DNA from: Candidatus Woesebacteria bacterium RIFCSPHIGHO2_01_FULL_39_32
GTDB taxonomy: Bacteria > Patescibacteriota > Microgenomatia > UBA8517
Direction of reading: 5' to 3'
DNA length: 64,000 nt
Assembly (NCBI GenBank): GCA_001792345.1
Contig: MGGJ01000009.1
Coordinates: 3,711 to 67,710, forward strand
A program made the translations under genes and the position numbers. The notes under the pieces were generated by a model. The model had not been told where the DNA came from. It was given only the letters and a program-made list of their open reading frames with translations, and did no database searches. How positions within the stretch are numbered: the stretch's first letter is position 1; the number at the start of each line of letters is the position of its first letter. Positions 1,772-53,212 of the stretch are shown here, piece by piece.

Positions 1772-3193
1772 TTATTTGTCAGATAAAATTTTATTGATTC
1801 TTTTTAATGTTTCTTCTTTACCTAAAATTACTATCGAATCGTTAATTGGCGGAGTAAATTTACTTCCAGCTATTGCTATTCGCAAATCCATAAAAAAATC
1901 TCCCGTTTTAAATCCCTTTTTTTCAATTTTTTTCATTAAATTATCATTCAAGTTCTCCAGATCCCAAGAATCCAGATTTTCAATAATATTATGTGCCGCT
2001 TGCAAGTGTTCTACCCAATTTTTTCCTAACATTTTCTTATCAACCCTCGGTTTTTCAAAAAAGAATCCAGCGAGTTGCCTTAATTCTGAAAGTTTTTTTA
2101 TTCTAGACTTAACGAGGGGCGATAACTTAATCAATAATTTTTTATCTATACCCACTGGAGCAAACTTGAGAGACCTTTGGGCAAAATCTTCATCTGTTAA
2201 TTTTTGTATGTACTGATTATTCATCCAAAGAAGTTTATCCCTATCAAAAGCGACTAAATCAGTCTTGTGAATTTTCTCAATCGAAAAAACTCGAATAAAC
2301 TCCTCTAAACTATAAAACTCCCTGTCAGTACCTGGATTCCAACCCAAAAACATTAGAAAATTAAGAAGTGCTTCAGCCAGATAACCTTCGTCTAGAAATT
2401 CTCTAGCTGAAACTGCTCCAAAGCGCTTTGATAACTTTTTCCCAGCACCCATTTCTTTTAAATTTGGAATATGAGCAAAATAAGGCATTTTCCAACCAAA
2501 TGCCTCATAAAGAAGAATATGTTTTGGAGTTGAAGGAATCCAATCATTTCCACGCATAACATGAGAAATTTTCATTAAATGATCGTCAACTACAACTGCA
2601 AAATGGTAAGTTGGGAACCCATCCGATTTAATTAGAACCTGATCATCTATGTTGTTTGAGGAAATTGATATTTTACCTGTAATTAAATCGTTGAAAGTTA
2701 CCTCTTTGTTTTCAGGAACTTTCATACGGATTACATAGGGTAACTTATTTACTAATTTTTCTTCAATTTCTTGCTTCTTAAGTTTTAGGCACAACCTATC
2801 ATACTTTGTAGAAACCACACCACGAGCCTTTTGTTCCTCACGCATTTTTGCCAATCGCTCTTCGGAACAAAAACAGTAGTATGCTGCTTTTTTCTTGAGA
2901 AGAATTTGGGCATGTTCTTGATAAATATCGAGTCGTTCAGACTGAATATAGGGTCCGTATGGACCTCCGACTCTAGGACCTTCGTCCCAACTGAGACCGT
3001 AATCGGAAATTACGTCTAAAATTCTATCAGTTGCACCTTCCACATAACGCTCTCTATCGGTATTTTCAATTCGAATAATAAAATCTCCCTTATTTTTTTT
3101 AGCAAAAGCCCAATTGTAAAGAAGTGTCCTTATATGACCAATATGGTATTCGCCTGTTGGGCTGGGGGCCATTCTTGTTCTTACCTTAGTCAT
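1772..3193 (-). CDS. gltX: Glutamyl-tRNA synthetase
   Basis: Class I HIGH motif (PSPTGEYHIGHIRT) and KMSKS-type motif (KKLSKRFG). Length 473 aa. Confidence 0.9.
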   Translation of the reverse strand: MTKVRTRMAPSPTGEYHIGHIRTLLYNWAFAKKNKGDFIIRIENTDRERYVEGATDRILDVISDYGLSWDEGPRVGGPYGPYIQSERLDIYQEHAQILLKKKAAYYCFCSEERLAKMREEQKARGVVSTKYDRLCLKLKKQEIEEKLVNKLPYVIRMKVPENKEVTFNDLITGKISISSNNIDDQVLIKSDGFPTYHFAVVVDDHLMKISHVMRGNDWIPSTPKHILLYEAFGWKMPYFAHIPNLKEMGAGKKLSKRFGAVSAREFLDEGYLAEALLNFLMFLGWNPGTDREFYSLEEFIRVFSIEKIHKTDLVAFDRDKLLWMNNQYIQKLTDEDFAQRSLKFAPVGIDKKLLIKLSPLVKSRIKKLSELRQLAGFFFEKPRVDKKMLGKNWVEHLQAAHNIIENLDSWDLENLNDNLMKKIEKKGFKTGDFFMDLRIAIAGSKFTPPINDSIVILGKEETLKRINKILSDK

Positions 3194-5386: not shown

Positions 5387-7192
5387 CTAGCCAAGAGTAA
5401 TTAACTCCGGTTTCTCAACTTTTACAAAATCATGATATTTCATCTTTATCGATCTGTCGTGTCGTCCGGCGTTAAACGCAATTTCTTCAACATCACCCAA
5501 TCTTGAATCAACATATGTTTTTAAACCAACAGATGAGCCAATGGGTGGAACTGCTCCGACTTCCAACCCCGTCTTTGCTTTTACTGACTCTTTGGAAGCC
5601 ATTCTTAACTTTTTAACTTTCAACTTGTTTTGAAGTTTTTCTAAATCAGCTTGAATGTCAGCCGGTAAGACATACAAAATAAAATCTTTGTCCGCTTGTA
5701 ATACTAGAGCCTTTGCTCCCTGGTGAATATCCGTACCACGAACTATGGCGGCTTGTTCACTTGTGTAAACCGGCTCATGTTCATACTTTTCAAATAAAAT
5801 CTCGTTTGACTTTAATAAATCGATAATTTTTTCGTATATATCTTTTTCTTTAGTTTCCGATCCTTTAGTTCCTTTCCGCAAAGTTGAAAGACGAATATCT
5901 ACCCTCTCCATATCCCTTGGGAAAATAGAGGCCTCACGAATATTTTTTAGACCTAATATATGCATCGTTATTCTCTCAGCACCGAACGCAAATCCACCTA
6001 GTGGCGGCATACCATACTTAAATGCCTGTAGATAAAGTTCAATATTTTCAGGAGTTACCCCCCACTTTTTGGCGTGCTCAACTAGTGTATCGTAATCATG
6101 AATTCTCCGACCACCTGTCATCCACTCAGTACCTCGCCCAATTAGATCAAAGCCTTGGTTATATTCTGGTTCATCGGGATCAGGATATGTATAAAATGGT
6201 CTTGCATAGGTTGGATAATGACTAACAAAAACCAAATCCGATCCATGAACTTCCTTTGACCATAAACAAATTTCTCTCTCATCATCTGGTGCCAAATCTT
6301 TTTCGCGACGTACATCGCGACCAGTTCTTTCAAAAATAGTTTGTTGGGCATCTCTGAGTTTTATTATTGGAATATTTTCGGCAACTGACGGGGTTGTTGC
6401 ATTATACATTGCAAGTTCCTTTTTACACTTCTCGTCAACTTCTTTCAAAATAAACTTTATTACGTACTCCGCCATTCCTTTAACTTCCAAATAATCTTTG
6501 ATAAAGCCGAATTCTGCGTCCAAACTTATTACTTCAGTTAAATGTCTCGTTGTGACCGAAGGTTCAGCACGAAAAACTTTATTGACGCTAAATACCCTCT
6601 CAAAGACACTAACCAACAGAGACTTATAAAGTTGAGGGCTCTGGGCAAGATAAGTTTTATGATCAAAATACTTAACCTCAAAGATTTCCGCTCCTCCTTC
6701 TGGGGCTGAAGATATGATTGAAGGAGCTTGAAATTCAACGAATTCCTTTTGCTGAAGCGCTCTTCTGAAAGCGTCTACAACTACTTCTTGAACTTTAAAA
6801 ATTGCCTTAATTTTTGGGTGCCTTAGAGTGAGAGATCTATAATCAAGTAGCGTTGGCAACTCTAACTCCAGATTTTCGACTCCCATATCAAACGGAAGCT
6901 CTGCAGATTTGGATAAAATATTTAAGTTTTCAATTTCAATCTCAATGGTTCCAGTTTCCATTCTCGGATTGACCAAGTTTTCCGGTCTTTTTTTGACTAA
7001 ACCGCTTATTTCAACTACTGACTCGGGATTAACTTTAGTTAAATCTTTTCCTACACATTGAACAATTCCGCTTCTGTCTCGAAGATCTATGAAGGTGATC
7101 TTTCCGTGATCACGGATAGTATTTACCCAACCGGCTAAGGTAACTTTCTCTCCAACTTTATTGACAGTTTCCTTAACTAAAGTTCTTTCCAT
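5387..7192 (-). CDS. aspS: Archaeal/eukaryal-type aspartyl-tRNA synthetase with a fused C-terminal YbaK/ProX-like aminoacyl-tRNA deacylase domain
   Basis: OB-fold anticodon-binding N-terminus (GWVNTIRDHGKITFIDLRDRSGIVQ). Class II motif 2 (FRAEPSVTTRHLTEV) and motif 3 (GGFAFGAERITMHILGLKNIREASIFPRDMERVD), the latter of the archaeal AspRS type (FPRD..R). The C-terminal ~150 aa (YEHEPVYTSEQA...KALVLQ...TGLEVGAVPPIG) matches the YbaK/ProX fold. The first in-frame ATG is at 7192; the track used a TTG at 7210. Confidence 0.8.
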   Translation of the reverse strand: MERTLVKETVNKVGEKVTLAGWVNTIRDHGKITFIDLRDRSGIVQCVGKDLTKVNPESVVEISGLVKKRPENLVNPRMETGTIEIEIENLNILSKSAELPFDMGVENLELELPTLLDYRSLTLRHPKIKAIFKVQEVVVDAFRRALQQKEFVEFQAPSIISSAPEGGAEIFEVKYFDHKTYLAQSPQLYKSLLVSVFERVFSVNKVFRAEPSVTTRHLTEVISLDAEFGFIKDYLEVKGMAEYVIKFILKEVDEKCKKELAMYNATTPSVAENIPIIKLRDAQQTIFERTGRDVRREKDLAPDDEREICLWSKEVHGSDLVFVSHYPTYARPFYTYPDPDEPEYNQGFDLIGRGTEWMTGGRRIHDYDTLVEHAKKWGVTPENIELYLQAFKYGMPPLGGFAFGAERITMHILGLKNIREASIFPRDMERVDIRLSTLRKGTKGSETKEKDIYEKIIDLLKSNEILFEKYEHEPVYTSEQAAIVRGTDIHQGAKALVLQADKDFILYVLPADIQADLEKLQNKLKVKKLRMASKESVKAKTGLEVGAVPPIGSSVGLKTYVDSRLGDVEEIAFNAGRHDRSIKMKYHDFVKVEKPELITLG

Positions 7193-7210
7193 GGTTTTAT
7201 TATGACACAA

Positions 7211-7402
7211 AATAAAAAGCCCCTGTAAAATCCGACAAAAAATCGGAGCTTACAGGGGCCCTTTGAATAAGGACGGTACCACCCTAATTTGTAACTTAAT
7301 TTTGTGCTGTTACGGGCACTTCCCGAAAGGTTCTACTTGCCTTAAAGGCTTTCTTCCTTCGGCTCTCCCGATGTTTGTCGGGATCAAACGCCTTTATTTA
7401 TT
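7211..7402 (-). promoter_or_regulatory. T-box riboswitch leader upstream of aspS
   Basis: The minus strand carries the T-box consensus AAUUAGGGUGGUACCG (plus-strand coordinates 7274-7289). It overlaps the 5' half of a strong terminator hairpin (GCCCCUGUAA...UUACAGGGGC, 7219-7259) that is followed by a U-run ending just before the aspS start. Confidence 0.7.
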
Positions 7403-7408
7403 CTGGTA

Positions 7409-7437
7409 AGTATAAAACCGATATTATTTTCTGTCAA
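7409..7437 (-). promoter_or_regulatory. Sigma70-like promoter for the T-box/aspS transcript
   Basis: On the minus strand: TTGACA (7437-7432), a 17-nt spacer, then TATACT (7414-7409). It lies inside the 3' end of rel. Confidence 0.45.
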
Positions 7438-8929
7438 CATCAGTTTTTCTCAAAGCTTTACCAATTTCTCGACGGGCTTGGGTAGTTACGACAAACTCCA
7501 ACCAATCATGATTTGGACTTCTTTTTTCTTTAGATTTCAAAATTTCTACAACCTGTCCACTTTTTAACTTATAATTTAAAGGAATTATTTTCCCGTCGGC
7601 TTTAGCAGCTTTTAAATAATCTCCCAAATCAGAGTGAAGCGCGTATGCAAAGTCTATGGGTGTGCTACCAACTGGTAGATCAAAAACGTCTCCTCGCGGC
7701 GAAAAAACAAAAATTCGCTCTCTTAATGCATCGAATTTCACCGCCTGAAGAAATTCCTTAGAGTCTGAAATTTCCTTTTGCCATTCGGCAAGTTGCTTTA
7801 TCCAAGAGAGTTTTTCCTCTGAGGCGGTCACACCTCTCTTATCAAGTTCTTGATCATTAATTACGGCCTTTCTCTTTGCGTCAGAGTAAGCCCAATGCGC
7901 AGCAACCCCATGCTCTGCCTGTTCATGCATATCAAAAGTACGTATCTGAACCTCAGTAATTTTTCCTCTTGGTCCAAAAACTCTTGTATGAATCGATTGG
8001 TAGCCGTTTGGTTTTGGCTGGGCTATGAAATCGGAAATTCCAAAGTGTGGAACTAGCTTAAAAGATCTATGAACAACTCCCAGCGCCGTATAGCACTCTG
8101 TAACGGTTTTTACCAGAATCCTGAGTGCGACAATGTCATAAATCTTACCGAAATTCCATTCTATTCCAAGTCTTTCCAGTTTTTTCCAAAGAGAGTAAAA
8201 ACTCTTCTTTCTCCCATCTATTTTTGCTTCAATACCTTCAGATGACAGCGCTTTTAGAAGGCTTCGTTTCATTTTCCTTATATTTTCTTCGGCCTTTTTA
8301 TAGTAGATTGTGGCGCCCTTTTTTACCCTCACATATTCACTAGGGAAAACATAGGGAAATGCCAAGTCCTCAAGTTCAGAACTCACCTGCCCCATTCCCA
8401 GTCTTTCAGATAGCGGAGCATAAATCTCCAAGGTTTCTAGAGCAATTTTTTCTTGTCTATCCTTTGGAACATATGAAAGAGTTCTCATATTGTGAAGTCT
8501 GTCGGCAAGTTTCACTAAAACTACCCGCAAATCCTTTGCCATCGCCAAAAACATTTTTCTTAAATTCTCGATATACTCTTCTTCAATCTCTTGCTTCTTA
8601 AGTTTTATGTGAGAAACTTTTGTAACGCCATCAACTAGACGTGCAACCTCTTCACCAAATTCTTTTTTTATATCGGATAGATCTGCGGCCCCGTCTTCAA
8701 CTACGTCATGTAAAAATCCCGCAACAATTGTGTCTGTATCAAGTTTCCAAGAAGTTAGAATCTTTGCAGTTTCAAGTTCGTGAATAACGTAAGGTTCTCC
8801 ACTATATCTTTTTTGTCCGGTATGGGCTAGTTTGGCAAATTTCCACGCCTTTTTAATCAAATCCAAGGCAAGTTTGTTGTCGTTGTAGCTTTTAACTATC
8901 TTTAATACTTCCCTAAAATCATTCTCCAT
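7424..8929 (-). CDS. rel: Bifunctional (p)ppGpp synthetase/hydrolase, Rel/SpoT homolog. Short form ending after the TGS domain.
   Basis: HD hydrolase domain (HTGQKR...HDVVED), synthetase domain (YQSIHTRVF...EVQIRTFDMH) and TGS domain (IFVFSPRGDVFDLPVGSTPIDFAY). Only 501 aa, with no ACT/RRM C-terminal region. Confidence 0.85.
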   Translation of the reverse strand: MENDFREVLKIVKSYNDNKLALDLIKKAWKFAKLAHTGQKRYSGEPYVIHELETAKILTSWKLDTDTIVAGFLHDVVEDGAADLSDIKKEFGEEVARLVDGVTKVSHIKLKKQEIEEEYIENLRKMFLAMAKDLRVVLVKLADRLHNMRTLSYVPKDRQEKIALETLEIYAPLSERLGMGQVSSELEDLAFPYVFPSEYVRVKKGATIYYKKAEENIRKMKRSLLKALSSEGIEAKIDGRKKSFYSLWKKLERLGIEWNFGKIYDIVALRILVKTVTECYTALGVVHRSFKLVPHFGISDFIAQPKPNGYQSIHTRVFGPRGKITEVQIRTFDMHEQAEHGVAAHWAYSDAKRKAVINDQELDKRGVTASEEKLSWIKQLAEWQKEISDSKEFLQAVKFDALRERIFVFSPRGDVFDLPVGSTPIDFAYALHSDLGDYLKAAKADGKIIPLNYKLKSGQVVEILKSKEKRSPNHDWLEFVVTTQARREIGKALRKTDVDRK

Positions 8930-10639
8930 TTAACTAAGCTTTAAATCTTTAACTTTTAACTGCAAACTTTTGTTACCATTCCAGGTATCAAGAGATAGAT
9001 TGTAGGCAATACCAACTTTCTTATTGGGGGAGAGCAGAGGAGCGATTTCACCTTTCCCAAAAGCAATTGCGTTAAATATTTTATCGTCTTTTTCAAGTGT
9101 AAGTTTTAAATGCTTCCCTTCTGCCCCAACCGTTCGAGCATCGACAACACTTACATTTTTTGTAATAAATACGGGCGTGGGGTTCCCAATTCCTGTTGGT
9201 TCAAATTTTGAAATCTCCGCTTCAAGTTCCACATTTAAGTTCTTAAATTCTACCTCCGTATCGACCTTCAATTTTTTGGTTAATACATCGTCCGTAAGTA
9301 ACGGCGAAGTAATTTCTTCAAATTTTTTTGCGAAAATTTCTATCTTTCCGGTTTCAATACTAAACCCTGCAGCCATTGGGTGACCACCTCCACCCAAAGT
9401 AATACTATCAAGCTTCCTTATCGATTCGATAATGTTAAACCCCGAAATTGAACGAGCGGAAGCTTTACTAATCTTTTTTCCTTTTGACAAAACTATAGCT
9501 GGTCTATAAAACTCTTCAACCAATTTTGATGCAGCTAAACCAATTACTCCTTCGTGATAGCTCTCGTGCGCTAAAACTATAGCGCCGCTCCATTCATTTT
9601 TTTGTGCCATTTTTCGGGCATGCAAAACCACTTCATCAACAACCCTTTGACGTTCTCTATTTGTTCTTCCCAAGAAATTCGCAAGTTCTCTCGCTTTTTG
9701 AGAATTTTTGGTGCATAAAAGTCGTAAGGAATCGATGGCATGCTCCATTCGTCCCATCGCATTTATCCGTGGGGCAATAATAAAGTTAACTTCGTAAGTT
9801 CCAATCTTTGCACCTTGCAGGGTACGACCCTGCAAATTTCTTAAACCAGCTTCTTCATACAAAGCAAGCAGGCCAGGCCTTCCCGTATAGTTCAAAGCTT
9901 CTAAGCCATATTTTGCAAAAGAACGGTTTGGACCAAGCAAAGGCAATTGATCCGCAATAGTGCCCATGGCAGCCAGTTCTAAACTGTTTCCTATTAGGAT
10001 TTGGGATTTGGGATTTGGGATTTTTTTAATAATCTCTCTTGCTAATATCCAAGCCACTCCCGCTCCGGAAATCTTGTCCGTATGAATAATGGAATATGCC
10101 TTCGGAAGTTTTTTTCCTTTCTGGTGATGATCAGTAATAATTACGTCGATTCCAAGTTTGTTCGCCTTATCAACAGCATCATTTGCTACAATACCGTTAT
10201 CTACAGTAATTAAAAGTTTGAAATTTGGAAATTGGGATTTGAGATTTCCAATGCTTCCAGCATTGGCGCCATAACCTTCATCAAACCTGTTTGGAATGTA
10301 CGGGATAACGTTCTTAGTTAAGGAATACAGACATTCCCACAAAACTGCTGTTGCGCAAATACCATCTGCATCATAATCGCCGTATATAATTATTTGCTCT
10401 TTATTCTTTATCGCATTTTTAACTCGTTTTATAGCTTTATCAAGCTGTTTTTGATCCAAATTTAAACTTTTAACTGTAATTTTTCCGGGATGTATAGGAT
10501 TAAAAAACTCCTCTTTTTGGCTTTTAGTTTTCAAGCCACGATTCTCCAGCAAGATATTAATAATTTCGTTTATTTGAAATTTGGATTCTGGATTCTGGAT
10601 TTTCTTGAGTATCTCCCACCTTAAATCTTTATTTACCAT
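8930..10639 (-). CDS. recJ: Single-stranded-DNA-specific exonuclease RecJ
   Basis: DHH motifs (IIIYGDYDADGICA; ITDHHQ) and a DHHA1-like C-terminal region (GGGHPMAAG). Confidence 0.85.
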   Translation of the reverse strand: MVNKDLRWEILKKIQNPESKFQINEIINILLENRGLKTKSQKEEFFNPIHPGKITVKSLNLDQKQLDKAIKRVKNAIKNKEQIIIYGDYDADGICATAVLWECLYSLTKNVIPYIPNRFDEGYGANAGSIGNLKSQFPNFKLLITVDNGIVANDAVDKANKLGIDVIITDHHQKGKKLPKAYSIIHTDKISGAGVAWILAREIIKKIPNPKSQILIGNSLELAAMGTIADQLPLLGPNRSFAKYGLEALNYTGRPGLLALYEEAGLRNLQGRTLQGAKIGTYEVNFIIAPRINAMGRMEHAIDSLRLLCTKNSQKARELANFLGRTNRERQRVVDEVVLHARKMAQKNEWSGAIVLAHESYHEGVIGLAASKLVEEFYRPAIVLSKGKKISKASARSISGFNIIESIRKLDSITLGGGGHPMAAGFSIETGKIEIFAKKFEEITSPLLTDDVLTKKLKVDTEVEFKNLNVELEAEISKFEPTGIGNPTPVFITKNVSVVDARTVGAEGKHLKLTLEKDDKIFNAIAFGKGEIAPLLSPNKKVGIAYNLSLDTWNGNKSLQLKVKDLKLS

Positions 10640-10732: not shown

Positions 10733-12154
10733 ATGAAAGTAGAAATACCCTCCAAGGTTGAGGAAATTGTAGACAAATTTGAGCAAACCGGCTATGAAAT
10801 TTATATAGTCGGAGGGGCAGTGCGAGATATTTTGATGGGTAAGTCGGTCTACGATTGGGATTTCGCAACAAAAGCAACTCCCGATGAAATTCTCAAGTTA
10901 TTTAAAGATGCGTATTACACTAACGAATTCGGAACGGTAGGAATACCAAATGAAAATAAAGACGAAAGACCTTATGAGATAACAACCTTTAGAACAGAAC
11001 ATGGATACTCAGACGCCAGACGTCCGGATAAAGTCGAATGGGGAAAAACTCTTGAGGAAGACTTGAAAAGACGCGATTTTACTTGGAATGCAATGGCCTT
11101 AAAACCAGAGCATGAGAGTAAAAGAGTAAAAGAGTTTAAGTCTGAAAAAACTAAGACCACTCAAGCTCTTACACTATCAAGCCCTTTCACTCTAATTGAT
11201 CCCTTCGCTGGCCAAGAAGACATTAAAGACAAGCTAGTCCGAGCAGTTGGTGATCCTAACGAACGCTTTTCTGAAGATGGACTCCGACTGATGCGAGCTA
11301 TTCGAATAGCGACGGAACTTATGTTTACTATCGAAGAAAAAACATTTGAGGCTATAAGGGTAAACGCTTCTTTAATCAATAAAATTTCAAAAGAAAGAGT
11401 GAGGGATGAACTTTTTAAAATACTTAAATCTCCTAATCCGTACGAGGGGATATTACTTTTTAAAAATTCGGGTTTAATGCAGGAGATTTTACCTGAAATG
11501 GAAAAAACATTTGGAGTCGAGCAGAAATCTCCGGGGAGACATCATATTTACGATGTCGGAACTCATAGTCTTTACTCGCTGAAGCATGTTGCTGAAAGAA
11601 ACTCGGATCCTGTCGTACGATTCGCAACTTTAATCCATGACATCGGTAAACCTCAAACATTTAAAAAATTGGGTAACGGGACAATTACCTTTTATAACCA
11701 TGAAATTATTAGCGCTCAAATTGTCAAAAGAATTGCGGATAGACTCAGGTTTTCTAACAAAGAAAAGGATAAATTATACAGACTAGTCAGATATCACCAA
11801 TTTAGTGTTGACGAAAGGCAAACTGATTCAGCCCTTCGAAGATTTTTAAGAAAAGTTGGGTTGGAAAACGTTGGCGACATGCTCGACCTACGGGTTGGAG
11901 ACCGTCTCGGAGGAGGAGCAAGAGAAACAAGCTGGCGCTTGGAAGAATTCAAAAAAAGACTTATCGAAGTTCAGAAACAACCTTTCACTGTCCACGATTT
12001 AAAAATTAAAGGTAATGATGTAATGAAAGTATTAGGAATAGAACCCGGACCTATGGTTGGAAAGGTATTAGATAAATTATTCGAAGAAGTCGTCGAGAAA
12101 AAAATTGAAAATGAAAAAAGCGTGCTTCTTAATAGAATCAAAAATCTATCGTAA
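10733..12154 (+). CDS. cca: CCA-adding tRNA nucleotidyltransferase with an HD domain
   Basis: PolyA-polymerase head domain (IYIVGGAVRDILMG...DWDFAT) and an HD domain (RHHIYDVGTHSL...LIHDIGKP). Confidence 0.8.
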   Translation: MKVEIPSKVEEIVDKFEQTGYEIYIVGGAVRDILMGKSVYDWDFATKATPDEILKLFKDAYYTNEFGTVGIPNENKDERPYEITTFRTEHGYSDARRPDKVEWGKTLEEDLKRRDFTWNAMALKPEHESKRVKEFKSEKTKTTQALTLSSPFTLIDPFAGQEDIKDKLVRAVGDPNERFSEDGLRLMRAIRIATELMFTIEEKTFEAIRVNASLINKISKERVRDELFKILKSPNPYEGILLFKNSGLMQEILPEMEKTFGVEQKSPGRHHIYDVGTHSLYSLKHVAERNSDPVVRFATLIHDIGKPQTFKKLGNGTITFYNHEIISAQIVKRIADRLRFSNKEKDKLYRLVRYHQFSVDERQTDSALRRFLRKVGLENVGDMLDLRVGDRLGGGARETSWRLEEFKKRLIEVQKQPFTVHDLKIKGNDVMKVLGIEPGPMVGKVLDKLFEEVVEKKIENEKSVLLNRIKNLS

Positions 12155-22032: not shown

Positions 22033-22170
22033 ATGTATTGTGTAAAATGTAGAGCCAAAAGAGAAGGAAAGAATCAGGAAACTGTTACCATGAAGAATGG
22101 AAAGAAAGCCATGCGAGCCGTTTGTGAAGTTTGTGGTACCAAGATGTTCAAGATCATGGGTAACGCCTAA
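22033..22170 (+). CDS. Small Zn-ribbon protein (45 aa, CxxC...CxxC), DUF5679-like. Not in the ORF track.
   Basis: Translation: MYCVKCRAKREGKNQETVTMKNGKKAMRAVCEVCGTKMFKIMGNA. GGAGGTG RBS 7 nt upstream. Intrinsic terminator directly downstream. Confidence 0.55.
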   Translation: MYCVKCRAKREGKNQETVTMKNGKKAMRAVCEVCGTKMFKIMGNA

Positions 22171-22194
22171 GATTTTACCTTCTTGAAAATTCTT

Positions 22195-22238
22195 CCAAGA
22201 GTAACCCTGAGCGAAGTCGAAGGGTTTCTCTTGGTTTT
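22195..22238 (+). terminator. Rho-independent terminator downstream of the Zn-ribbon gene
   Basis: Nested stem (CCAAGAG...ACCCU-gagcgaagucga-AGGGU...CUCUUGG) followed by UUUU. Confidence 0.55.
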
Positions 22239-43822: not shown

Positions 43823-45244
43823 TTACTTACCTTTCTTTTTTGTAGGTTCCGGCGGAACGAGAGGTTTATATAAAAAGCTTAACGTAAATTCCAAGTTAAT
43901 CTCTTTTTCAAAACTGGAGATGGGAATAGTAACGCTTGTGTAGTCCGTATTTGTCTCAAGTTTTTGTTTAAAATTAATAAGAGAAGCTCTATCGACAGAT
44001 ATCCCAGTAAGACTTACTTCTCCCCTATCAAGATCAAGATTATAGCCGGATATTGCTATACCCTGAGGCTTCGACATATCGATAGTGTTCAGTATCTTTT
44101 GCGGTAATACCGATATCTTTTTAATGGCAAGAATTTTTTCGGAGATTTTATTTATTGTCTTTATGTTAGAGACTGCTTCTTCGCGTTTTTTGGTAGTTTC
44201 TGCATTTACCTTACTTACCAACTTCAAACTATTAATATTTTGTACCATGAATAGATATGCTCCTAAGGTTATTAAAAATGATATCCAGGTGAATAAAGTA
44301 ATTGTAAGTGTTAAACCCCACACCTGTAACCTGAGCCGTTCTTTCTTATATTTTTCTACTAAAGAAAAGGGTAGAAGATTTAAAGAATTTGGGTCCGAAG
44401 GCTCTGCAGGCTCTGACAATTGCATTGATAATGGAATTAAATATTCCTGAAGTTTCGCTTTTTCAATCCCGGAAACTTCAGGTTGAATCAATAAAAATTG
44501 AAGTTTTAATTGATCTGTCAGTCTAGCAACTAATTCTTCTGTAATTTGCGTTCCCCCTAAAGAGAGTGTCTTTATTTGAACTTCTTTAAAGTGGGTAAGC
44601 ATTTGAGAGCTTGTTTTTATAATTTGCTTGGGGTCGGCACCTTTAATAACCGATGTTCCAACAATTCTTTCTCCTTGAGCGACTACAAGAAGTGCTTCCC
44701 CAAAATTTTTATAAATAATAAGGCTTCCAGAAGAATCTTTTTTAGATAGCCTCACAAGACAAGTCGACGGAGTTTCAACTACAAGCGGAAATAGTCCAGC
44801 TTCCTCACACGCACTAACGTATTGACTAAGAACTTCCTTACTTACAGCTACTATCAAAATTTCATAGCCTTCGGGAGTCTTATCTATTATCTTCCAGTCG
44901 GTAATCGTTTCAGCCTGCGAACTTGGCAGAAATTCCTGAGCTTGCCAATTAACTGCTTCCGCAAGTTCGGAAATAGCAAGTTTTGGAAGTTTAAAAAATT
45001 TAGTGAATGTTGATGCTTCGGGCAAAATAATCCCAATTGCGCGTTCTTTAATGTGAAGTTTTGCCCAAACATTTTCTAAAATCCGGGACAAAGCCGCGCT
45101 ATCTATTATCCTGGCTCCTTCGATAATTCCCTCTGGCAAATCCACCGTCGACTCCCTGATAACTTTTTTCTTACTTGAAGAAAGTTGCAAGATAAGAAGT
45201 TTGTTACTCAAAAAATATATCGATACGAATGATCTTTTGAACAT
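43823..45244 (-). CDS. pilM: PilM-PilN fusion protein (actin-like ATPase fold, then a transmembrane segment and a PilN-like periplasmic region)
   Basis: N-terminal PilM-like region (ILQLSSSKKKVIRESTVDLPEGIIEGARIID). Mid-protein transmembrane segment (GLTLTITLFTWISFLITLGAYLF), then a PilN-like C-terminus. Confidence 0.6.
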   Translation of the reverse strand: MFKRSFVSIYFLSNKLLILQLSSSKKKVIRESTVDLPEGIIEGARIIDSAALSRILENVWAKLHIKERAIGIILPEASTFTKFFKLPKLAISELAEAVNWQAQEFLPSSQAETITDWKIIDKTPEGYEILIVAVSKEVLSQYVSACEEAGLFPLVVETPSTCLVRLSKKDSSGSLIIYKNFGEALLVVAQGERIVGTSVIKGADPKQIIKTSSQMLTHFKEVQIKTLSLGGTQITEELVARLTDQLKLQFLLIQPEVSGIEKAKLQEYLIPLSMQLSEPAEPSDPNSLNLLPFSLVEKYKKERLRLQVWGLTLTITLFTWISFLITLGAYLFMVQNINSLKLVSKVNAETTKKREEAVSNIKTINKISEKILAIKKISVLPQKILNTIDMSKPQGIAISGYNLDLDRGEVSLTGISVDRASLINFKQKLETNTDYTSVTIPISSFEKEINLEFTLSFLYKPLVPPEPTKKKGK

Positions 45245-50333: not shown

Positions 50334-52022
50334 TTAGTTTTCTCGAACAACCCTTAATACTTCCTCAATTGTGGTCAACCCAGAAGAAACTTTATCGAGA
50401 CCATCCTGAAGCATTGTAACCATCCCCTCGGCAACTGCCTCTTTTTGGATTTCGTCGCTCGTTGCTTTTTGAGTAATTAAAATTCTTATTTTTTCTGTGA
50501 CGGCAAGAACCTCATATATTCCGATTCTCCCAGTATAACCCTTGTGGTTACATTGCTCGCAACCTTGGCCTCTATAGAATTTTTGTTCTCCAAGATCAAT
50601 TCCCAAGTCTTTGGAAAGCTTTTTTCGGACTACTTCCTCGGGAGAATATTTAACGATACAGTTAGAGCAAATTTTTCGAACCAGCCGCTGAGCAATAATT
50701 GCATTAACAGTTGAGGCCAGTAAAAAATCCTCTGCACCCATGTCCAAAAATCGCGGAATTGCACCTGCTGCTGTATTTGTATGAAGAGTTGACAAAACCA
50801 AATGTCCGGTGAGTGCGGAGTGTATCGCAATCTCAGCCGTTTCTTTGTCTCGTATCTCCCCTACCATAATAATATCAGGATCATGCCGCATAAGAGCCCG
50901 AAGTCCTGTAGAAAACTCCAATCCTGTTTTGGGATTTACCTGAAATTGTGTAACTCTACCTATCGCATATTCAATTGGGTCCTCAATGGTACAAATCTTT
51001 ACCTCTATGGTATTTAAAATATTCAATATTGAATACAATGTCGTTGTCTTTCCTGATCCCGTTGGACCTGTTACAAGAATCATTCCGTAAGGCCTTGTAA
51101 TATTTTCCCGAATAATTTCTAAGTTGTGACCGGTTAATCCCAGCTCCTCAAGAGACAGAGGTCTATTTGTTTCTTGCAAAAGTCGCATAACAACGTTTTC
51201 CCCATAAAACCCAGGAATTATTGAAATTCTTAGAGATATTACGTCGTCATCGAGTAGAAATTTATATCTACCATCCTGAGGAATTCTGTGTTCATCTATT
51301 TTTAAATTTGAAAGAATTTTTATTCTAGCTATAAGAGCCGTCTCTATCCCTCTCGGAAACTTAACAATATCCCTGAGCACCCCATCAATCCTAAATCGTA
51401 CTACAACTTCTCCTTCTTGTACTTCAATATGAATATCTGATGAACGCTCTGATATAGCGTATCCTAATATCGTGTCGAAAATTTTTACAATTGGGACCTT
51501 TTCGGCTGCTTTTGCAAGATCTTCTTCATCGCTCCCTGGGGCTACACGTTTTATATTTTCTGCTATTATTTTTTCAAAGTCCTCCTTTATTCCCTTTTTA
51601 TATTGCCCTAGTGCTTTGACTATATCGTCACGAGTAGAATAATAGCTTTCTATTTCGAGTCCGGTGTGGCGTTTTGCGAACTCCATTGCCTCGAAGTCTT
51701 CAGGGTTTTCCATAGCAAGCTTAAGTACACCTGCCTCTTTTTCAAAAGGAACAATCCTGTAGACTCGTGCCATTTTTTCGGGGATGAGGGAAAGAACCTC
51801 GGGGGGAATATTTAAGCGACGGACATTACCAAATGGAACATTAAAATGTTCAGCTATGAGCTTCCCGACAGTTTCTTCGTTAATTAAACCCCTAAAAATT
51901 AATACGTCAATGGGTTCTTTTGCAAGTTCAGTCGCGGTTTTCGCAGCTTGATCAAATTCTTTTTCGCTTACAAATCCACTTCCAACAATTATCTTTTTAA
52001 GTGTTTCTGTTGTTAACTGCAT
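50334..52022 (-). CDS. pilB: Type IV pilus assembly ATPase PilB (GspE family)
   Basis: Walker A (GPTGSGKTTTLY), Asp box, Walker B, His box and a tetracysteine motif (CSNC...CEQC). Confidence 0.85.
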   Translation of the reverse strand: MQLTTETLKKIIVGSGFVSEKEFDQAAKTATELAKEPIDVLIFRGLINEETVGKLIAEHFNVPFGNVRRLNIPPEVLSLIPEKMARVYRIVPFEKEAGVLKLAMENPEDFEAMEFAKRHTGLEIESYYSTRDDIVKALGQYKKGIKEDFEKIIAENIKRVAPGSDEEDLAKAAEKVPIVKIFDTILGYAISERSSDIHIEVQEGEVVVRFRIDGVLRDIVKFPRGIETALIARIKILSNLKIDEHRIPQDGRYKFLLDDDVISLRISIIPGFYGENVVMRLLQETNRPLSLEELGLTGHNLEIIRENITRPYGMILVTGPTGSGKTTTLYSILNILNTIEVKICTIEDPIEYAIGRVTQFQVNPKTGLEFSTGLRALMRHDPDIIMVGEIRDKETAEIAIHSALTGHLVLSTLHTNTAAGAIPRFLDMGAEDFLLASTVNAIIAQRLVRKICSNCIVKYSPEEVVRKKLSKDLGIDLGEQKFYRGQGCEQCNHKGYTGRIGIYEVLAVTEKIRILITQKATSDEIQKEAVAEGMVTMLQDGLDKVSSGLTTIEEVLRVVREN

Positions 52023-52880: not shown

Positions 52881-52908
52881 AAAATCCACCCATTGGTGGA
52901 TTTTTTAG
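52881..52908 (-). terminator. Symmetric hairpin terminator (AAAAAAUCCACC-cauu-GGUGGAUUUUUU) at the 3' end of rnpB
   Basis: Perfect 8-bp GC-containing stem flanked by A and T runs on both sides. Confidence 0.6.
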
Positions 52909-53212
52909 TCTCTGGAGGCTAGTAAGCCAGGTTCTGTTTCTCGACGGTAATCTGTCTAGTGCCCTTCATTGGAACTTGGGAAGGCATCCTTAAAACGTCC
53001 CGGTCGAAGGTTGCAGCGGAGGGGATTGCCCTTTTCACTCGTGTTCTTTTACCTTTAGGGTAAAAGAGTCGACATAGTCTCTGTTGCTCTAACCAGCCCT
53101 TTCGGGTCACGGCTTACGCCGCGTCTCCTGCCTTCTGCTGCCTGGACTTTCCTGACCATTAGATAGCGAGTATTCGCTTTATCTCACAGCCTAACCGTCC
53201 TTCCTCCAGAGC
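52908..53212 (-). ncRNA. rnpB: RNase P RNA (bacterial type, reduced size, about 300 nt)
   Basis: On the minus strand: the 5' P4 strand CAGGAAAGUCCAGGC (plus-strand 53144-53152 region); the conserved GUGAAAAGGGCAAUCCCCUCCGC module; and the 3' motif ACAGAACCUGGCUUAC (52923-52937). The CCAG/CUGG pair is a compensatory covariation against the E. coli P4 pairing CCGG/CCGG. P1 pairing is GGAGG/CCUCC. The region has higher GC than its flanks. Confidence 0.8.

Follow-up and report, generated by a model that had tools for sequence, protein, structure and literature searches.

On the minus strand of the 64,000-nucleotide (nt) stretch of DNA analysed here (contig MGGJ01000009.1 of Candidatus Woesebacteria bacterium RIFCSPHIGHO2_01_FULL_39_32; hereafter the window, with positions counted from its first letter), the aspartyl-tRNA synthetase (AspRS) gene aspS is preceded by a leader region (7437-7209) that comprises a sigma-70-like promoter, a T-box leader and an intrinsic terminator. 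Upstream lie rel and, beyond it, recJ (8930-10639), and the recJ-rel-aspS order is kept in several relatives. The minus-strand spacer between rel and aspS measures 231 nt and holds every feature of an initial annotation, which had been made from the letters alone and had proposed a T-box antiterminator/terminator switch with its own promoter. From rel to aspS, the features of the locus are as follows.

7424-8929, minus strand: rel, encoding a RelA/SpoT protein of 501 amino acids (aa) with HD, synthetase and TGS domains
7409-7437, minus strand: sigma-70-like promoter, TTGACA (7437-7432), 17-nt spacer and TATACT (7414-7409), matching at 11/12 positions
7361-7392, minus strand: ultrashort Stem I of 32 nt, with basal helix GGC/GCC, kink-turn (K-turn), 6-bp helix UCCCGA/UCGGGA and 6-nt apical loop CAAACA
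7372-7375, minus strand: specifier, AAC (Asn codon, 7375-7373) plus the conserved purine A7372, directly 5' of the Stem I 3' strand
7326-7360, minus strand: Stem II, with lower helix GAAGG/CCUUU, AAGAAA opposite AAGUAGAA (S-turn) and upper helix GCCU/AGGC
7304-7325, minus strand: Stem IIA and IIB pseudoknot, hairpin CGGG-AAGUG-CCCG (7325-7313), with GUG (7319-7317) pairing to CAC (7306-7304)
7286-7303, minus strand: A-rich linker in place of Stem III, AAAAUUAAGUUACAAAUU, with a 4-bp A-U mini-helix at most
7254-7289, minus strand: T-box sequence AAUUAGGGUGGUACCG (7289-7274) and antiterminator, helices A1 AGGG/CCCU and A2 GUCCUU/AAGGGC, loop AUUCA
7209-7259, minus strand: intrinsic terminator, GCCCCUGUAAGCUCCGA-UUUUUUG-UCGGAUUUUACAGGGGC (7259-7219) and U-run UUUUUAUUUU (7218-7209), -32.2 kcal/mol
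5387-7192, minus strand: aspS, 601 aa, AspRS (aa 1-431) and YbaK-like editing domain (aa 472-591); PF01336, PF00152 and PF04073

The promoter was found where the initial annotation had placed it, inside the 3' end of rel: the -35 hexamer falls within the last codons of that gene, whose stop codon occupies 7426-7424. TTGACA/TATAAT-like pairs, read from the sequences, also precede the leaders of related loci (L093, L087, L089, L007 and L011). The rel product is a short RelA/SpoT homologue (RSH) without the C-terminal regulatory region of long RSH enzymes.

The near-consensus T-box sequence reported for the minus strand is likewise present. It is a AGGGUGGNACCGCG-like sequence that forms the 5' side of an antiterminator with a UGGNACC bulge, here the 7-nt UGGUACC (7281-7275) with U7278 as its variable base. 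The canonical antiterminator, AGGG[UGGUACC]GUCCUU-AUUCA-AAGGGC-CCCU, is the minimum-energy fold of 7285-7254 (-8.7 kcal/mol). The strong terminator that had been described as GCCCCUGUAA...UUACAGGGGC with a U-run is present too, its long hairpin being rich in G+C, and its U-run ends 17 nt before the aspS ATG (7192). Since GCCCCU (7259-7254) is both the 5' strand of the terminator and the 3' strand of the antiterminator, the two structures are mutually exclusive; the overlap on which the initial annotation had based its switch therefore stands, and the antiterminator does form with the terminator 5' strand. An equivalent hairpin and U-run overlapping the antiterminator are found in nearly all related leaders.

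A scan of the window against Rfam at curated thresholds returned RNase P RNA only. With permissive filters, the T-box family RF00230 gave a full-model match at 7397-7251 with 33.4 bits, and this was the only significant cis-regulatory match (E = 7.6e-6 for the local region; E = 0.0011 for the 64-kb window against all 4227 families). The RF00230 search that had been suggested as a check thus came out positive by E-value and negative by gathering score (93 bits), and default Rfam scans are silent on the leader because its score lies below that threshold. Seven relatives scored 36-54 bits against RF00230, all below threshold as well. The low score is explained by the reduction of Stem I to a K-turn, a 6-bp helix and a 6-nt loop: in the alignment, 72 distal Stem I model positions correspond to 4 nt in the window leader. 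Stem III (17 model positions) is down to 3 nt. Alignment is good at the K-turn base, across Stem II and Stem IIA, and through the T-box sequence and antiterminator.

For comparison we used 80 aspS loci from reference genomes and 16 loci of the closest fused homologues (AspRS joined to a YbaK-like domain). The covariance model R1, the leader model used on these fetched loci, matched before aspS or an aspS operon at L093, L089, L096, L007, L016, L014, L095, L092, L087/88, L002, L085/86, L097-99, L011, L005 and L004, with a doubtful match at L038. All leader-bearing loci belong to Patescibacteria; among them are Shapirobacteria (L005), WWE3 (L007), Paceibacteria (L016), bins labelled Saccharibacteria (L011, L014) and the loci of an Amesbacteria-named protein, P0014 (L097-99). 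AspRS identity to the protein of the window is 48-82% across the lineages compared. R1 gave zero matches on the Chloroflexota, Deinococcota, Actinobacteria and archaeal loci (L039-L080), and the leader is also absent at L001, L003, L031 and L081. Scanning metagenomes with the single protein yielded just 3 loci and added no leader.

A further model, R2, was built from 12 relatives with the window left out, and it found a single match in the 64 kb, the leader, at 118.9 bits (E = 3e-26) with zero non-standard pairs. Together with the RF00230 match and the features described above, this result bears out the T-box leader upstream of aspS that the initial annotation had read by eye. The structure was imposed on the alignments, which were then realigned with covariance models, and the figures that follow come from alignments fitted to the model and hence biased towards it. 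In the 12 best relatives (window excluded), standard pairs make up 93.7% of pair cells compared with 68.8% in shuffles, 24/30 pairs change on both sides, and the covariation score is 0.695 compared with at most 0.18 when pairing partners are shifted by one to three columns. In view of these shifted controls and of how many different pair types occur, we regard the covariation signal as real. An alignment of 19 sequences was 91.3% paired, with a covariation score of 0.512.

This signal extends over the individual helices. Both helices of Stem I covary, with double changes in 5/5 pairs of the upper one; the Stem II helices (3 and 4) are 98% and 95% paired, with compensatory changes in 9/9 pairs; and the antiterminator helices (6 and 7) are 95-96% paired, with double changes in 8/9. 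For the IIB pseudoknot, which is not part of the model, a perfectly complementary triplet lies 5-8 nt downstream in 9 of the 12 correctly parsed leaders (L085 is not among these 12), and the triplet pairs vary (GUG:CAC, CGC:GCG, UGC:GCA, AAA:UUU and AAC:GUU). Compared with shuffled sequences, the folding of the window leader has z = -4.96.

The resulting RNA is compact. In the K-turn of Stem I, G7385 and A7384 lie opposite G7365 and A7364, and the stem has no AG bulge, distal loop or tRNA elbow-binding platform. The expression 'ultrashort Stem I' was reportedly used by Sherwood et al. 2015 for the ileS leaders of Actinobacteria. The Stem II signatures GAAGAAA and UAGA are kept wherever Stem II exists (14 leaders; L004 and L011 are without it), and an F-box-like CCGUAA occurs within the Stem IIA/B segment. 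The motif AAAUNAAG is conserved in the linker that replaces Stem III; a real hairpin at the Stem III position occurs in L087 and L085 only.

Comparison among leaders also settles where the specifier lies. The apical loop reads NN-[G/A]AC-A in 16/16 distinct leaders (window included), no other codon occurs, and in all 16 the 3' strand of the helix on the K-turn comes right after the loop, which is 6-7 nt long among relatives. GAC (Asp) is found in 9/16 leaders (L002, L004, L007, L011, L014, L016, L087, L092 and L097) and AAC (Asn) in 7/16: the window (CAAACA), L096 and L095 (CUAACA), L093 (AAAACA), L089 (UUAACA), L085 (UCAACA) and L005 (CCAACA), the last being a divergent weak match with an uncertain T-box bulge and specifier parse that was counted as Asn-type from its loop alone. 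The register of codon, purine and helix (on a K-turn) is as in canonical T-boxes, and TBDB calls specifiers by it (PMC7778990). GAC and AAC are codons for the pair of tRNAs that the enzyme encoded downstream, typed as an aspartate--tRNA(Asn) ligase, would use as substrates; Asn-type leaders precede YbaK-fused AspRS in 7/7 cases, and Asp-type leaders precede fused and unfused forms. The initial annotation had offered as specifier candidates GAC, or GAA/AAC in AGUAGAACC, and neither was right: 15 related leaders fix the specifier as AAC in CAAACA. The adjacent GAC (7379-7377) was rejected, as G7379 and A7378 are paired within a covarying helix, and so was AGUAGAACC, which is the 3' strand of the Stem II S-turn.

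The gene behind the leader had been called an archaeal-type AspRS, and this part of the identification is upheld by NF003483 (aspartate--tRNA(Asn) ligase), which matches at 470 bits (cutoff 353). What it lacked is the C-terminal YbaK-like editing domain (PF04073; about 5420-5779, minus strand), for which the nearest solved structures are 3op6 (uncharacterised) and those of YbaK, 1dbu and 2dxa. Family models call the enzyme non-discriminating, and it is accordingly predicted to serve both tRNA-Asp and tRNA-Asn; use of the indirect asparagine pathway is suggested by the AspRS family assignment only. Woesebacteria, Amesbacteria, Microgenomates and other Patescibacteria supply the nearest named AspRS relatives. 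Homologues are common both with the fusion (~600 aa) and without it (~440 aa), with dozens of fused ones in Microgenomates and related Patescibacteria, and a literature search returned nothing relevant on an AspRS-YbaK fusion.

T-boxes fall into four classes according to a 2023 paper, whose 'mostly' leaves room for known transcriptional exceptions. Class III T-boxes have a short Stem I without the interdigitated double T-loop motif, carry the specifier in a penta- or hexanucleotide apical loop and need Stem II for function, and most of them control translation initiation via a Shine-Dalgarno sequestrator (PMC10482949); in Class III crystal structures, the groove between Stem I and Stem II clamps the anticodon stem-loop. 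Because 72 Stem I model positions are replaced by 4 nt, we assign the window leader to the Class III type with an apical specifier loop. The 6-nt loop CAAACA sits on a 6-bp helix above the K-turn, the Stem II S-turn and the IIA/B pseudoknot are present and conserved, and the marks of Class I (a long Stem I with AG bulge, an elbow platform and an internal specifier loop) are all absent.

Like the Class III ileS leaders of Nocardia farcinica and Mycobacterium tuberculosis, the window leader combines a short K-turn Stem I without the interdigitated double T-loop platform with a hexanucleotide-loop specifier, a Stem II S-turn, a IIA/B pseudoknot and a UGGNACC bulge (PMC10482949, PMC7583486). It differs from them in its output, with an intrinsic terminator instead of the Shine-Dalgarno sequestrator (its hairpin contains no Shine-Dalgarno-like sequence), in the gene controlled (aspS, not ileS), in its Asn/Asp rather than Ile specifier and in its occurrence in Patescibacteria rather than Actinobacteria; in addition, Stem III is vestigial in most Patescibacteria members. 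With Class I (RF00230, the Bacillus subtilis tyrS type) it shares the order of K-turn, specifier and purine, Stem II S-turn, pseudoknot and T-box, exclusive antiterminator/terminator attenuation and a position upstream of an aminoacyl-tRNA synthetase gene, whereas it lacks about 70 nt of the distal part of Stem I (AG bulge, distal loop and elbow contact) as well as an internal specifier loop that has an S-turn of its own. A functional parallel is the NT-box of Clostridium acetobutylicum, for which PMC4574755 describes a tRNA-Asn response governing the indirect Asn-tRNA-Asn route with a non-discriminating AspRS; the common logic would be that uncharged tRNA-Asn raises the supply of an indirect-pathway enzyme. 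The NT-box is, according to the same source, a long-Stem I Firmicute element that has an 8-nt loop with two overlapping codons and controls an operon, whereas the window has a minimal single-codon hairpin loop and a single AspRS-YbaK fusion gene.

Taken together, the sequence, the folds and their energies, conservation and covariation, the codon register and the identity of the gene, all observed here, indicate that aspS is probably controlled by this leader as a T-box attenuator of transcription that senses tRNA and has the architecture of Class III. How it would work can be proposed from established T-boxes, the source of our assumptions on tRNA binding, charge sensing, read-through and tRNA-Asn as the ligand. 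Transcription would start a few bases past the TATACT box, and the nascent leader would fold into a short K-turn-based Stem I with a 6-nt loop presenting AAC and the purine. Stem II (with its S-turn) and the IIA/B pseudoknot would dock alongside, such that the anticodon stem-loop of tRNA-Asn (anticodon GUU) is clamped with no elbow contact. If the tRNA is uncharged, its 3' NCCA would pair with UGGU of the bulge and stabilise the weak antiterminator (-8.7 kcal/mol), allowing read-through into aspS; if it is aminoacylated, the terminator (-32.2 kcal/mol) would form and transcription would stop 17 nt ahead of the start codon. If AspRS makes both Asp-tRNA-Asp and Asp-tRNA-Asn, the switch would therefore tune the enzyme to charging in the Asn branch. 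In sister lineages with GAC loops (a single A-to-G change), it would be tuned to the Asp branch.

The same T-box might instead respond to tRNA-Asp, or to both tRNA-Asp and tRNA-Asn, which we consider unlikely. At the top of Stem I (GACAAACA), GAC (7379-7377) and the A after it would be usable if the top two base pairs opened, or the two codons could be read alternately, after the manner of the two-codon C. acetobutylicum NT-box; GAC-A and AAC-A both lie within CCCGACAAACAUCGGG, and the same GA/C junction recurs in L095 and L096. The gene encodes AspRS, GAC is the specifier in 9/16 leaders, and dual-specificity T-boxes are known (Saad et al. 2012, 2013, as cited in PMC4574755). However, G7379 forms a G-C pair and A7378 an A-U pair in a covarying helix, and the Asp-type relatives hold GAC at loop positions 3-5, followed by A and the 3' strand, exactly where the window has AAC. 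Moreover, the Asn-type loops of L089 (UUAACA), L085 (UCAACA) and L005 (CCAACA) have no GAC at the 5'-side junction.

The leader could also be a decaying or non-functional T-box relic in which the hairpin and U-run terminate rel or constitutively attenuate aspS, with no sensing. Such a relic would fit the loss of the leader in very close relatives with the same synteny (L084, L094), the occurrence of UGGU for UGGC in the window alone, the missing Stem III and the position of the element just behind rel, a gene without its own terminator. We judge this reading quite improbable, since all helices are intact (zero non-standard pairs against the relatives-only model), the leader has its own near-consensus promoter, and harm would be expected from a constitutive terminator of -32 kcal/mol lying 17 nt ahead of an essential aminoacyl-tRNA synthetase gene present in one copy, unless that terminator could be overridden. 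The T-box bulge, S-turn, specifier and purine are, besides, under purifying selection across lineages with AspRS 48-82% identical. Very unlikely, in our view, is a translational T-box like the Class III ileS leaders, with the 3' hairpin as a sequestrator of the ribosome-binding site. Reviews tie a short Stem I to translational control (PMC7583486, PMC11297988), but here the hairpin is directly followed by UUUUUAUUUU, a hallmark of intrinsic terminators, and this post-hairpin U-run is kept in relatives. The distance to the ATG is 27 nt from the end of the hairpin and 17 nt from that of the U-run, and the intervening UGUGUCAUAAUAAAACC contains no Shine-Dalgarno-like sequence.

Several observations weigh against a tRNA-sensing attenuator of aspS. 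Stem III, which in the T-boxes studied belongs to the charge-sensing domain, is all but absent. Transcriptional T-boxes have been argued to need the elbow contact for fast tRNA capture (PMC7583486), and a terminator-coupled Class III element goes against this expectation. The leader also appears dispensable: L084, with an AspRS 82% identical and the same recJ-rel-aspS order, has a 63-nt rel-aspS spacer (2937-3001) and no leader, and none is found at L090, L091 and L094 (where there is no room) or directly upstream of aspS at L085. This patchy occurrence among very close relatives implies recent loss or gain. With regard to the enzyme, TIGR00458 is passed by less than 1 bit (369.1 bits, cutoff 368.4). 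A non-discriminating AspRS goes together with GatCAB, often where AsnRS is lacking; neither GatCAB nor AsnRS was found among the ten largest candidate open reading frames (ORFs) of the window, a set that is uninformative for the whole genome. ARAGORN found no tRNA genes in the window, and the 54 related loci contained one tRNA-Glu only, such that the anticodon and discriminator base of the proposed ligand were not seen in these loci. Finally, the fourth base of the bulge is U in the window alone, with UGGC in 14/15 related leaders and UGGA in the divergent L005.

In E. coli, tRNA-Asp and tRNA-Asn both carry G73. With G73 in tRNA-Asn, the fourth bulge pair would be G-C in the relatives and a G-U wobble in the window leader, where the partner of U7278 in the ligand tRNA would have to be A73, or G73 as a wobble. 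If tRNA-Asn does have G73, the wobble may weaken the response or reflect drift. That GAC changed to AAC in the specifier jointly with C to U at the bulge base, so as to match different discriminators, was rejected because L089, L093, L095, L096 and L085 pair AAC with UGGC.

In two relatives, the leader precedes other genes before aspS. An Asn-type leader at L085:42-249 is followed by an aminotransferase, an archaeal-type phosphoenolpyruvate carboxylase (PF14010) and aspS, and an Asp-type leader at L087:2247-2425 by an asparaginase-like ORF (174 aa, PF00710) and then aspS; both contexts are compatible with an Asp/Asn regulon. The terminator at L085 (CCCCUGUAAGUUAC...) is very similar to that of the window.

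A literature search, with incomplete coverage, found no report of a T-box in the candidate phyla radiation, Patescibacteria or Saccharibacteria, in line with the remark in the initial annotation that T-boxes are described mostly in Firmicutes and a few other phyla and that one controlling an archaeal-type AspRS in this kind of genome is notable. The Class III decoding module itself is known; the conserved coupling to a terminator, the gene aspS, the Asn/Asp specificity, the phylum and the vestigial Stem III are where these leaders differ. We see an even chance that they represent an unrecorded Patescibacteria lineage of minimal T-boxes (a Class III-type module plus a terminator), in which a G-to-A change in the loop repeatedly retargets aspS between tRNA-Asp and tRNA-Asn and of which L004 is a smaller form. 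If such a lineage exists, co-transcriptional tRNA sensing needs no elbow-docking platform. In the field, a short Stem I is associated with slow translational control of the equilibrium type, and a long, elbow-binding Stem I with kinetically driven control of transcription. A Class III element that is conserved and coupled to a terminator would be a natural counter-example, and the need for elbow docking would become testable with an RNA of ~190 nt.

T-box regulation in Patescibacteria would be invisible to Rfam-based pipelines and TBDB-style resources because the leaders score 33-54 bits against a threshold of 93 bits, and R2 could recover missed members. The leaders would also provide evidence for amino-acid-specific gene regulation (by predicted sensing) in ultrasmall, host-dependent bacteria with few known regulators. 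Their position suggests that Asn-tRNA supply via a non-discriminating AspRS is a controlled bottleneck, and the GAC/AAC toggle would be a natural case in which the specifier switches between the two tRNAs that a dual-specificity synthetase serves.

Two of the related leaders depart from the common architecture. At L004:2361-2483, a Stem I hairpin (loop UUGACA) is followed by a ~20-nt linker and then by the antiterminator and terminator, without Stem II or the IIA/B pseudoknot; the sensing part is ~85 nt, the whole leader 123 nt and the R1 score 25 bits. If functional, this leader would work with neither the elbow platform nor Stem II, the two auxiliary contacts to tRNA that are known. The leader at L038:1435-1564 has a clear UGGCACC antiterminator and a terminator and stands upstream of an unannotated ORF of 233 aa whose overlap with aspS is 17 nt. 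Stem I of this leader is rich in A/U, and GAC or AAC was not seen in an obvious loop.

A hairpin-cap module, CYGAGC-N3-4-YCGARG, also recurred in the sequences examined (14 occurrences compared with ~0.5 expected from shuffles). It folds into a small-looped helix containing tandem G-A/A-G pairs, and its Y and R positions covary. Occurrences include L092:1411-1426 and 1448-1462, L093:2818-2833, L095:2925-2940, L085:171-186 and 225-240, L002:2427-2442, L024:2384-2369 (minus strand) and the window at 22207-22222 (plus strand). Among T-box leaders its position varies (3' of Stem I, the Stem II tip, Stem III or the antiterminator loop), and it looks like a portable structural or protein-binding module. 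In the window, it tops a terminator-like hairpin (about 22194-22233) after a small ORF; this ORF (22034-22170, plus strand), with the capped hairpin on its 3' side, encodes ~45 aa with two CxxC pairs (MYCVKC...CEVCG) and is zinc-ribbon-like.

The RNase P RNA detected by Rfam is of the bacterial class A type (52907-53210, minus strand; 304 nt; 101.4 bits compared with a gathering score of 100). It is reduced, the model deletions being a 43-position block and a hairpin at about 284-303. Several ORFs of ~470 aa in the window have no NCBIfam match. Other genes in the window encode GluRS (1772-3193), a CCA-adding enzyme (10733-12154) and the PilB-like (50334-52022) and PilM-like (43823-45244) proteins of a type IV pilus.

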